The notes below the pieces were generated by a model. The model made no database searches and was not told where the DNA came from. It saw only the letters and a list, made by a program, of their open reading frames with translations. From a virus (lineage: Duplodnaviria > Heunggongvirae > Uroviricota > Caudoviricetes): 48,200 bases of DNA. How positions within the stretch are numbered: the stretch's first letter is position 1; each line of letters opens with the position of its first letter. Made by a program: the position numbers and the translations under genes. Below are positions 13,464-14,450 of this stretch, in pieces. The stretch lies in the IMG/VR virus record IMGVR_UViG_2563366870_000003. The stretch is one strand, 5' to 3'.

Positions 13464-14117
13464 TCACCCAAACGTCTCTTCAGGCCATTGGCTGGCGATA
13501 ACTTTCCCCACAACGGAACAACTCTCATTGCATGGGATCATTGGGTATTGTGGGTTTAGTGGCTGTAGAAACACCTGACCGCTATCCCTGATCAGTTTCT
13601 TGAAGGTAAATTCATCACCACCAAGTCTGGCTATGCAGAAATCGCCGGGCTCAACAGCTTGCTCAGGGTCAACCAGAATTAACATCCCGTCAGGAAAGCT
13701 GGGTTTGGAACCTGTTGGTGCGGTCATTGAGTTACCTTCAACCTCAAGCCAGAATGCAGAGTCACTGGCTTTTTTGGTTGTGCTTACCAATCTCTCCGCA
13801 TCGCCTTTGGTAAAGGTTCTGAGTTCTGGAGAGAACATCCCAGCCTGAACATGAGAAAAAACAGGGTACTCATATTGTTTTTTAACTGGGGCCGATGAGT
13901 ATTCGCCAACAGGTGAAAATGTCCCGTCGTGGTTGAATGATATGTTATCAATACCAAGGTATTTAAACACCACACCAATATCACTAAGAGATGGATGACG
14001 AGATCCGCGCAACCAGTGTCCAATCCCACCCTGCGTCATACCTAGCTCTTCGGCTAACTTCTCTTGAGTTATGCCGAGCTCTTTCATTCTGGATCTAGCC
14101 AGTTCATACCATTTCAT
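13464..14117 (-). CDS. cI: CI repressor: lambda-type C-terminal S24/LexA-like domain with a non-lambda N-terminal HTH domain
   Basis: C-terminal ~135 aa read as lambda CI from memory (…[32 protein letters not shown]…[12 protein letters not shown]; Ser/Lys autocleavage residues present). N-terminus ([38 protein letters not shown]…) differs. ATG at 14117 has an AGGA SD at 7 nt; alternative ATG at 14123. Confidence 0.85.
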
Positions 14118-14123
14118 TTTCAT

Positions 14124-14234
14124 GTCCTTATTATTACGCTCTGTACTGGAACCATCCATGCACAATGTGTATTTTTACTTGTATTCGCAAAGTACATATT
14201 GTATTTTTTTATTCGTGTTTACTATGGAGGGCAT
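14124..14234. promoter_or_regulatory. OR region: divergent pRM/pR promoters and operator repeats
   Basis: Intergenic between divergent cI and cro. Repeated TTGTAT motifs (3 copies) and the 11-mer AAAGTACATAT (14189-14199) shared with the pL region. Candidate pR: TTGTAT (14179-14184), 17-nt spacer, TATTTT (14202-14207). Confidence 0.5.
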
Positions 14235-14450
14235 ATGAGCAACCTACGAAAATATCGAGAGTCACTGAATATCTCTCAAACAACACTTGCTAAGGCAGTT
14301 GGATGCACACAGGGAGCTATCGGACATTGGGAATCTGGTCGTCGCTTCCCAGACCTTAAAACATGCCGTGCTCTTGTTGCGTGCCTAAACAAGTTAGGCG
14401 CAAAAGTCAGTCTTGATGACGTGTTCCCGCCGGAACACAAAGCCGCTTAA
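14235..14450 (+). CDS. cro: Cro-like HTH regulator, 71 aa
   Basis: ATG at 14235 with GGAGG SD; HTH 'ISQTTLAKAVGCTQGAIGHWESG'; divergent from cI. Confidence 0.75.
   Translation: MSNLRKYRESLNISQTTLAKAVGCTQGAIGHWESGRRFPDLKTCRALVACLNKLGAKVSLDDVFPPEHKAA

Follow-up and report, generated by a model that had tools for sequence, protein, structure and literature searches.

The 48,200-nucleotide stretch of tailed-phage DNA analysed here (IMG/VR record IMGVR_UViG_2563366870_000003, referred to below in its full length as the window) carries at 13464-14450 a cI repressor gene running leftward, a cro gene running rightward and 111 bp of control region between the two. This region is very probably an immunity module of the cI2c/cro4 type, as found in VT2-Sakai, in the Shiga toxin (Stx) phages 1717 and 2851 and in an Stx1 phage, set in a lambda-like genome and most likely operating as a lambda-style bistable switch. 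The hybrid repressor is a published and named entity, and its immunity group, cI2c/cro4, is without the imm lambda specificity. Smith et al. 2012 (PMC3430580) gave the repressor type the name cI2c and the accompanying cro the name cro4, and described a lambda CI carboxy terminus as common to the CI2c repressors, while Llarena et al. 2022 (PMC8951638) dealt with the same protein as the cI studied here, with an overall identity to lambda CI of 61%. There is, therefore, nothing new in the module as such: its sequence is public, its operators have been annotated, and the carboxy terminus held in common with lambda CI has been in the literature since 2012. The case shows a lambdoid route to new immunity, in which the DNA-binding domain, Cro and the operators are swapped and the cleavage/oligomerisation module is kept, and this immunity type governs the induction of many Shiga-toxin prophages.

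The evidence starts with the repressor itself. Pfam recognizes in cI an HTH_3 domain (residues 11-58, E=1.9e-10), with TQGGIGHW as the recognition helix region, and a Peptidase_S24 domain (residues 87-209, E=1e-28). A previous reading of the window, made from the sequence only, had proposed a lambda CI C-terminal domain (CTD) joined to a different helix-turn-helix (HTH) domain, and global alignment with lambda CI confirms this, since 17 of 81 positions (21%) are identical before the junction and 135 of 136 (99%) after it; the same alignment was used to check whether the N-terminal domain (NTD) might after all be lambda-like, which at 21% identity it is not. At the DNA level, lambda homology ends abruptly at 13874/13875, in the codon of Tyr84, the equivalent of lambda Tyr101 (mature numbering). 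Because the break falls at this residue, the shared block comprises the whole cleavage-site region together with the CTD; it also spans the dimer and cooperativity surfaces. In fact, the cleavage and catalysis motifs VQAGMF (Ala111-Gly112), GNSMT (Ser149) and TFKKL (Lys192) are identical to those of lambda, and a search against solved structures matched residues 84-219 to residues 101-236 of the lambda repressor with the replacement of Trp129 by Leu as the sole change, the HTH part giving a marginal match to the same protein. With an HTH_3 domain, an S24 domain bearing the Ala-Gly site and the Ser and Lys residues, a divergent cro and sets of operators, cI belongs with the LexA/S24-type repressors (lambda cI family). 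The gene is intact in the window, whereas in the VT2-Sakai record (AP000363) it is annotated as a 5'-truncated open reading frame (ORF), a truncation attributed by Smith et al. 2012 (PMC3430580) to a point mutation creating a new stop codon, with the loss of 60 N-terminal residues.

The assignment to the cI2c/cro4 group rests on close relatives. When the 83-residue NTD was searched against a large protein database, fragments of the same protein only, and no diverged relatives, were retrieved, and relatives were instead gathered by tblastn against phage genomes and by a scan of IMG/VR loci. Between N and cII (11400-14700, 3.3 kb) the window is 100% identical in DNA to Escherichia phages ev017, ev207, PhiR57_1 and PhiR63_2, and the same stretch without the cargo genes that lie between cI and the left operator is ~96% identical to many Stx phages (Nil2, 2851, 1717, YYZ-2008, the WGPS series and the Stx1 phage AP005153). 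The 83 N-terminal residues of cI are 100% identical in Stx phages 1717, 2851 and YYZ-2008, in the Stx1 phage and in ev017, ev207 and PhiR57_1, and 98.8% identical in VT2-Sakai; the CTD is, as a protein, that of the Stx phages, with 98.5% identity at the nucleotide level. As for ev017, ev207 and PhiR57, a full-text literature search for these names returned no relevant mention in main texts.

The other regulators tell the same story. The sequence-only reading had described Cro, the CII N-terminus and N as different from lambda, and none of the three resembles its lambda counterpart. Cro is identical at 71 of 71 residues to the Cro proteins of the Stx1 phage and VT2-Sakai, and N is one residue off the N of the Stx1 phage. 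Moreover, Cro and the NTD of cI are paralogues (35% identity) with nearly the same recognition helix, TQGAIGHW in the former and TQGGIGHW in the latter, so that Cro presumably reads the same sites as cI.

Around this module, the lambda backbone is real, as ~28 kb of the window can be aligned to lambda at 95-98% (exo to ral, O, P, and the lysis, head and tail genes). In the neighbourhood of the immunity region the lambda matches are the four segments given in Table 1 and no others, so that the non-lambda block extends from ~10790 on the left to 16139, within cII, on the right. It contains two lambda-like islands, namely the 3' part of cI and a 122-bp terminator segment.

The operators were located by mapping onto the window the annotations of the GenBank entry AP005153 (Stx1 phage), which has three putative 17-bp sites at the right operator (OR), three at the left operator (OL), and putative PR, PRM and PL promoters. 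The same operator strings are given for VT2-Sakai in Table S1 of PMC10742460; a full-text literature search for them found nothing relevant in main texts, the supplementary table being their only occurrence. The sites share one form, a half-site nA(G/A)TAC(A/G) on either side of a 3-bp centre, with AAGTACA-N3-TGTACTT as consensus; the twelve half-sites yield AAGTACA, in which A2, A5 and C6 are nearly or fully invariant. From centre to centre, OR1 and OR2 are 32 bp apart and OR2 and OR3 26 bp, an arrangement mirrored at OL with 25 and then 33 bp, and the distance between OL1 and OR1 is 2318 bp. When the window was scanned with the palindrome AGTACANNNTGTACT, only OR1 and OL1 matched with at most one mismatch, whereas with at most three mismatches 29 matches were found against 12.3 expected, OR2, OR3 and OL2 among them. 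A position weight matrix (PWM) built with each site left out in turn ranked that site, among ~48,000 positions, 1 (OR1), 10 (OR2), 2 (OR3), 1 (OL1), 8 (OL2) and 2 (OL3).

Two features on which the sequence-only reading had based its candidate operators are accounted for by these sites. The 11-mer AAAGTACATAT, said to be common to OR and the pL region, occurs at 14189 (+) and 11879 (-) and corresponds to the left half plus the centre of OR1 and OL1, and the repeated TTGTAT/ATACAA hexamers, of which TTGTAT is a right half-site, number four in the 212 bp of OR and OL against 0.09 expected from the rate over the window (Poisson P ~3e-6, a value inflated by the AT-richness of OR and OL). Likewise, the two regions it had put forward for binding, 14160-14230 and 11850-11920, hold four of the six putative operators, that is, OR1, most of OR2, OL1 and OL2. 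A third exact copy of the 11-mer lies at 4067-4077, inside an ea22-like ORF (3806-4570, minus strand), and is probably no operator, since it has the left half-site only.

Conservation across relatives supports the six putative operators. Among 28 variants of OR and 30 of OL taken from the fetched IMG/VR loci, 18 of 84 half-site columns are variable as against 35 of 66 columns in the centres and spacers (Fisher P=7e-5). Furthermore, three sites of the same form, spaced by 26 and 33 bp, are present in phage Dewey and also, despite an NTD only 48% identical to that of the window, in Salmonella phage SPN9CC. The true operators could be partly other than the six annotated 17-mers, with OR2 and OL2 misplaced or with shorter units of the TTGTAT type being the ones read. 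The poor scores of OR2 and OL2, the label 'putative' on the AP005153 annotations and the unusual spacing (32/26 and 25/33 bp) would all fit such a possibility, as would the case of the BAA2326 repressor, a member of a related family for which footprinting revealed weakly symmetric, unexpected sites. Nevertheless, it is an unlikely one: across the 28 OR variants, substitutions in OR2 are confined to the central bases, the sole other change being an insertion of one or two bases into a T-run of the right half-site, while the adjoining spacer is highly variable, and the three equally spaced sites recur in SPN9CC and Dewey.

The lambda operators themselves (the TATCACCGCCAGTGGTA family) have no match with four mismatches or fewer, for any of the six, in OR or OL, and sequences resembling lambda operators at other places in the window (such as one at 7575, with three mismatches) occur, by our own estimate, at chance number. 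Published electrophoretic mobility shift assays (EMSA) have shown lambda CI to bind the present operators weakly, with apparent dissociation constants (KDapp) of 3.7-6.4 uM compared with 0.2-0.35 uM for lambda OR1/OL1, and this 10-25-fold lower affinity fits heteroimmunity.

Two further observations concern operator-like sequences. Inside sieB, at 10970-10998, two overlapping 17-mers, TATTACATCCTGTTGTT and CATTACTGGATGTATTA, reach PWM scores equal to those of the weaker of the six putative operators; they could be either fortuitous or an additional binding site for the repressor. In Salmonella phage S107 and in mEpX1 the cI-cro intergenic regions contain 17-bp sites of the form (T/A)ATCAC(A/G)-N3-TGTGA(T/A)T; their repressors have a third, unrelated type of NTD, ~29% identical to that of lambda, and the half-site resembles the lambda TATCAC.

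The promoters PR, PL and PRM were placed by eye, guided by the annotation of AP005153, which has the maintenance promoter at the same location as the predicted PRM. Between the -10 hexamer of PRM and the cI ATG there are 6 bp, and the predicted start, ~14123, is the A of the ATG; the PRM transcript would therefore be leaderless, as in lambda. From the arrangement described, we infer operator binding, cooperativity and inducibility along the following lines. With their non-lambda HTH_3 domains, dimers of cI would contact the six 17-bp operators, OR1 covering the spacer and -10 of PR and OL1 those of PL. OR2 would be centred ~43 bp upstream of the start of a weak, probably leaderless PRM (-42 in lambda), and OR3 would sit between the PRM hexamers. 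Cro would read the same operators as cI, in the arrangement known from phage 434, where Cro and repressor read the same operators. The lambda-type block, equivalent to lambda residues 101-236, would supply dimerisation, cooperativity between dimers and RecA-stimulated self-cleavage at Ala-Gly, and possibly looping between OL and OR.

Several points weigh against a working lambda-style switch. OR2 and OL2 are weak matches to the motif, as their leave-one-out ranks reflect, and a generic sigma-70 promoter scan did not pick up PR, PL or PRM. The EMSA data found made use of lambda CI alone and not of the cognate repressor, nor was any experiment found in the literature with the cognate repressor bound at these sites. 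The distance from OR1 to OR2, 32 bp as against 24 bp in lambda, means that a lambda-like cooperativity between OR1 and OR2 is not to be assumed. Finally, cII is inactivated by an insertion sequence (IS), which would leave this particular copy unable to establish lysogeny normally.

The combination of a near-lambda oligomerisation module with a different DNA-binding domain also raises a tentative suggestion, to be regarded as rather improbable: mixed oligomers may form with lambda CI, or cooperativity may be redirected to the OR2-OR3 pair. The former stems from the fact that the dimerisation, cooperativity and cleavage module is identical to lambda at 135 of 136 residues and the DNA-binding domain differs. 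If lambda and this phage shared one cell, mixed dimers or octamers would bind neither set of operators properly, and two formally heteroimmune prophages might destabilise each other or be co-induced. If, in turn, the operator geometry (32/26 bp at OR, 25/33 bp at OL, kept in Dewey and SPN9CC) made OR2 and OR3 the cooperating pair, strong self-repression of PRM could be expected and, with it, a prophage low in repressor and easily induced, as has been proposed for other Stx-phage repressors. A pairing pattern of the operators differing from that of lambda is, at this stage, speculation.

A separate question is when the two halves of the repressor came together. The sequence-only reading had placed the recombination junction inside cI, giving a heteroimmune phage on a lambda backbone; the break and the backbone are as it described, but the junction dates from long ago and did not arise on this backbone. 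Within the shared block of cI the window and lambda are separated by 26 synonymous differences and one non-synonymous difference (synonymous divergence, dS, 0.37; non-synonymous divergence, dN, 0.003), so that the CTD, with a dN/dS of ~0.01, is under very strong purifying selection, whereas the dS of the backbone gene P is 0.16. The same block is the one with 98.5% DNA identity to the Stx1 phage and VT2-Sakai, which share the NTD. In the IMG/VR sample, 80 loci bearing this NTD were fetched, 75 of them with a full-length 219-aa cI; a lambda-type CTD was present in all 75, and in 59 the protein was identical to the window cI. On the grounds of the synonymous divergence of the CTD, its identity to Stx phages and its presence in 75 of 75 loci, the NTD-CTD pair is considered old and inherited as a unit. 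The sharp break at codon 84 is read, from sequence comparison, as the trace left by an old exchange in the linker between the domains.

The competing possibility, a hybrid cI made recently on this backbone with the C-terminal part deriving from the backbone's own lambda cI, would account for the lambda-like DNA on both flanks (97-98% identical as far as 10790 on one side, 97% from 16139 onwards on the other) and for a cI 3' part that can be aligned to lambda. It is nonetheless very improbable, given that this 3' part is merely 93.4% identical to lambda, with a dS more than that of gene P, and closer to the Stx phages; that non-lambda cargo genes stand between it and the next lambda-like island; and that the same NTD-CTD pair recurs in every full-length cI of the 80 independent loci.

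Exchange at the linker is, as far as comparison of the proteins indicates, recurrent in this repressor family, since NTD and CTD similarities are discordant among the seven repressors compared. The window and lambda share 99% of the CTD and 21% of the NTD, and S107 and SPN9CC 87% and 20%, respectively, whereas S107 and mEpX1 share 64% of the CTD and 84% of the NTD, and lambda and P8983 65% and 56%. Vertical descent from an ancestor shared with lambda cI, with no recombination and a DNA-binding domain diverging much faster, could draw on the very strong purifying selection on the CTD and on the comparison with SPN9CC, where the relationship is recognisable in NTD and CTD alike (48% and 80%), but is scarcely credible when, over a few codons, the DNA goes from 93% similarity to being unalignable and the discordant similarities of the seven repressors are not explained by a single tree.

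With an old, exchanged repressor as the preferred reading, the region can be set beside known systems. It is like the cI2c/cro4 regions of the Stx phages (VT2-Sakai, 1717, II, YYZ-2008, 2851, Nil2, AP005153) in having identical OR1-3 and OL1, and unlike them in that OL2 and OL3 differ by two and one bases, in a lambda-like backbone (siphovirus head, tail and lysis genes) where theirs is of the short-tailed type, in another cargo between cI and OL, and in a cII with a lambda-type C-terminus and an IS disruption. The same module on the same lambda-like backbone is already known from the sequenced phages ev017, ev207 and PhiR57_1. In PhiR57_1 the identity is complete over 9001-14702 and 99.9% over 16013-18500, and the lambda-like genes around the module (exo, bet, gam, kil, cIII, ral, sieB, O, P, ren) are those of the window; PhiR57_1, ev017, ev207 and PhiR63_2 all have an intact cII where that of the window contains 1310 bp of IS. 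Lambda itself has the same layout (cI-OR-cro, then a cargo slot downstream of cI, OL and N), tripartite 17-bp operators, a similar placement of OR2 and OR3 relative to PRM, the terminator island and a distance from OL1 to OR1 like that of the window (2318 bp); in contrast, the window has an NTD only 21% identical, an HTH_3 Cro of another fold family, rexAB replaced, a different N and different nut sites, and an OR spacing of 32/26 bp instead of 24/23 bp. As in phage 434, the DNA-binding domain of the repressor is homologous to Cro, both being of HTH type and expected to read the same operators, although the operator is here of 17 bp with an AAGTACA half-site, and the CTD of lambda type, whereas 434 has a 14-bp ACAA-N6-TTGT site. 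Lambda imm434 and imm21 are also heteroimmune modules on a lambda backbone, those being laboratory-made and the present hybrid natural.

The repressor of BAA2326/P8983, an O104:H4 Stx2a phage, is of the same broad family, and three sites have been footprinted in the BAA2326 OR (Chakraborty et al. 2018). It differs from the window cI in a lambda-type NTD (56% to lambda), a CTD only 64% identical, and unrelated operators (ATAACTGTGCGTAATG and others). An equation of the BAA2326 repressor, which is likewise 61% identical to lambda, with the window cI was considered and rejected: its operators are absent from the window and present in P8983 along with the lambda-type NTD.

Table 1. Positions of the immunity region features and of neighbouring elements in the window
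Feature	Position	Strand	Remarks
cI	13464-14123	-	219 aa from Met at 14123; longer ORF up to 14165
cI 3' part	13464-13874	-	Lambda-type block: cleavage-site region and C-terminal S24 domain; lambda residues 101-236
cI 5' part	13875-14123	-	Non-lambda HTH_3 DNA-binding domain and first part of linker, 83 aa
cro	14235-14450	+	71 aa, cro4 type, HTH_3 (Pfam)
OR1 (putative)	14190-14206		AAGTACATATTGTATTT; as AP005153 putative site and VT2-Sakai; overlaps spacer and -10 of predicted PR
OR2 (putative)	14158-14174		ATGCACAATGTGTATTT; as AP005153 putative site and VT2-Sakai
OR3 (putative)	14132-14148		TATTACGCTCTGTACTG; as AP005153 putative site and VT2-Sakai OR3
OL1 (putative)	11872-11888	-	AAGTACATATCGTACTA; as AP005153 site and VT2-Sakai OL1; overlaps predicted PL
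OL2 (putative)	11897-11913	-	TACAACAAATTGTATTG; 2 mismatches to Stx1 phage OL2
OL3 (putative)	11930-11946	-	AAATACAAAGCGTTATA; 1 mismatch to Stx1 phage OL3
PRM (predicted)	14130-14158	-	-35 TGGATG (14158-14153), 17-bp spacer, -10 AATAAT (14135-14130)
PL (predicted)		-	-35 TTGATC (11899-11894), 17 bp, -10 TACTAT (11876-11871); -35 TTGACC in many relatives
N	11409-11681	-	Antiterminator, 90 aa, HK97/Stx-phage type; Pfam N_peptide, E=1.5e-32
nutR	14461-14506	+	boxA CGCTCTTTG (14461-14469); boxB hairpin TCGCTGAAAAGCGA (14493-14506)
nutL	11780-11825	-	boxA GGCTCTTTA (11825-11817); boxB TGGCTGAAAAGCCA (11793-11780)
Two-gene cargo	12118-13424	-	In the rexAB slot; genes overlapping and co-oriented
Lambda-like island (lambda match, 90%)	11993-12114	-	Terminator downstream of the cI operon; stem 12093-12114
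cII 5' fragment	14592-14705	+	37 codons, HK022/Stx-phage type; Pfam Phage_CII; ended by the IS insertion
IS	14703-16012	+	IS629/IS1203-type, IS3 family, 1310 bp, in cII after codon 37
orfA of IS	14757-15083		Overlaps orfB
orfB of IS	15080-15970		Overlaps orfA
cII 3' remainder	16013-16201	+	Lambda-type from ~16139
SieB ORF	10811-11392		Pfam
Lambda match	10310-10790		98%
Lambda match	13463-13874		93.4%
Lambda match	16139-18046		97%

Both the known immunity type and the interruption of cII by an IS were missed by the sequence-only reading. Non-lambda over its first 37 codons, cII is a chimera, the last ~20 codons (LTNKKRPAATERSEQIQMEF, 16139-16201) being of lambda type and the rest of HK022/Stx-phage type; on the right side too, consequently, the non-lambda block ends within a gene. 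The IS has inverted ends TGAACCGCCCCGGG and a 3-bp target duplication, ATT, and matching copies carry the RefSeq label 'IS3-like element IS1203 family transposase'. It is absent from PhiR57_1, which is otherwise identical and has an intact cII, and a search for the exact cII/IS junction among 5,426 complete E. coli genomes found no identical insertion.

Regarding the slot between cI and OL, the two cargo genes encode proteins of 185 aa (weak DUF6978, phrog_2017) and 250 aa (DUF1828, phrog_1960). The pair weakly matches the PADLOC candidate defence system PDC-M24, PDC-M24B over its full length (E=4.7e-10) and PDC-M24A over 60 residues (E=4.8e-4), and the two genes in the place of rexAB are a candidate defence cargo. 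Across 76 loci with the same cI, the slot, taken from the cI stop codon to OL1, ranges from 136 bp, when empty, to ~1.7 kb and has at least 14 unrelated cargoes, among them paired small ORFs as well as single proteins of 280-350 aa, the cargo of the window being the commonest (~21 loci). The cI-to-OL slot looks like a hot spot for cargo or defence genes.

As to antitermination, N is accompanied by matching nut sites, and the boxA of both is of the (C/G)GCTCTTT type. The boxB hairpins of nutR and nutL, TCGCTGAAAAGCGA and TGGCTGAAAAGCCA, are distinguished by one compensatory change in the stem, from C-G to G-C, and the flank CTACGT is common to both sites.

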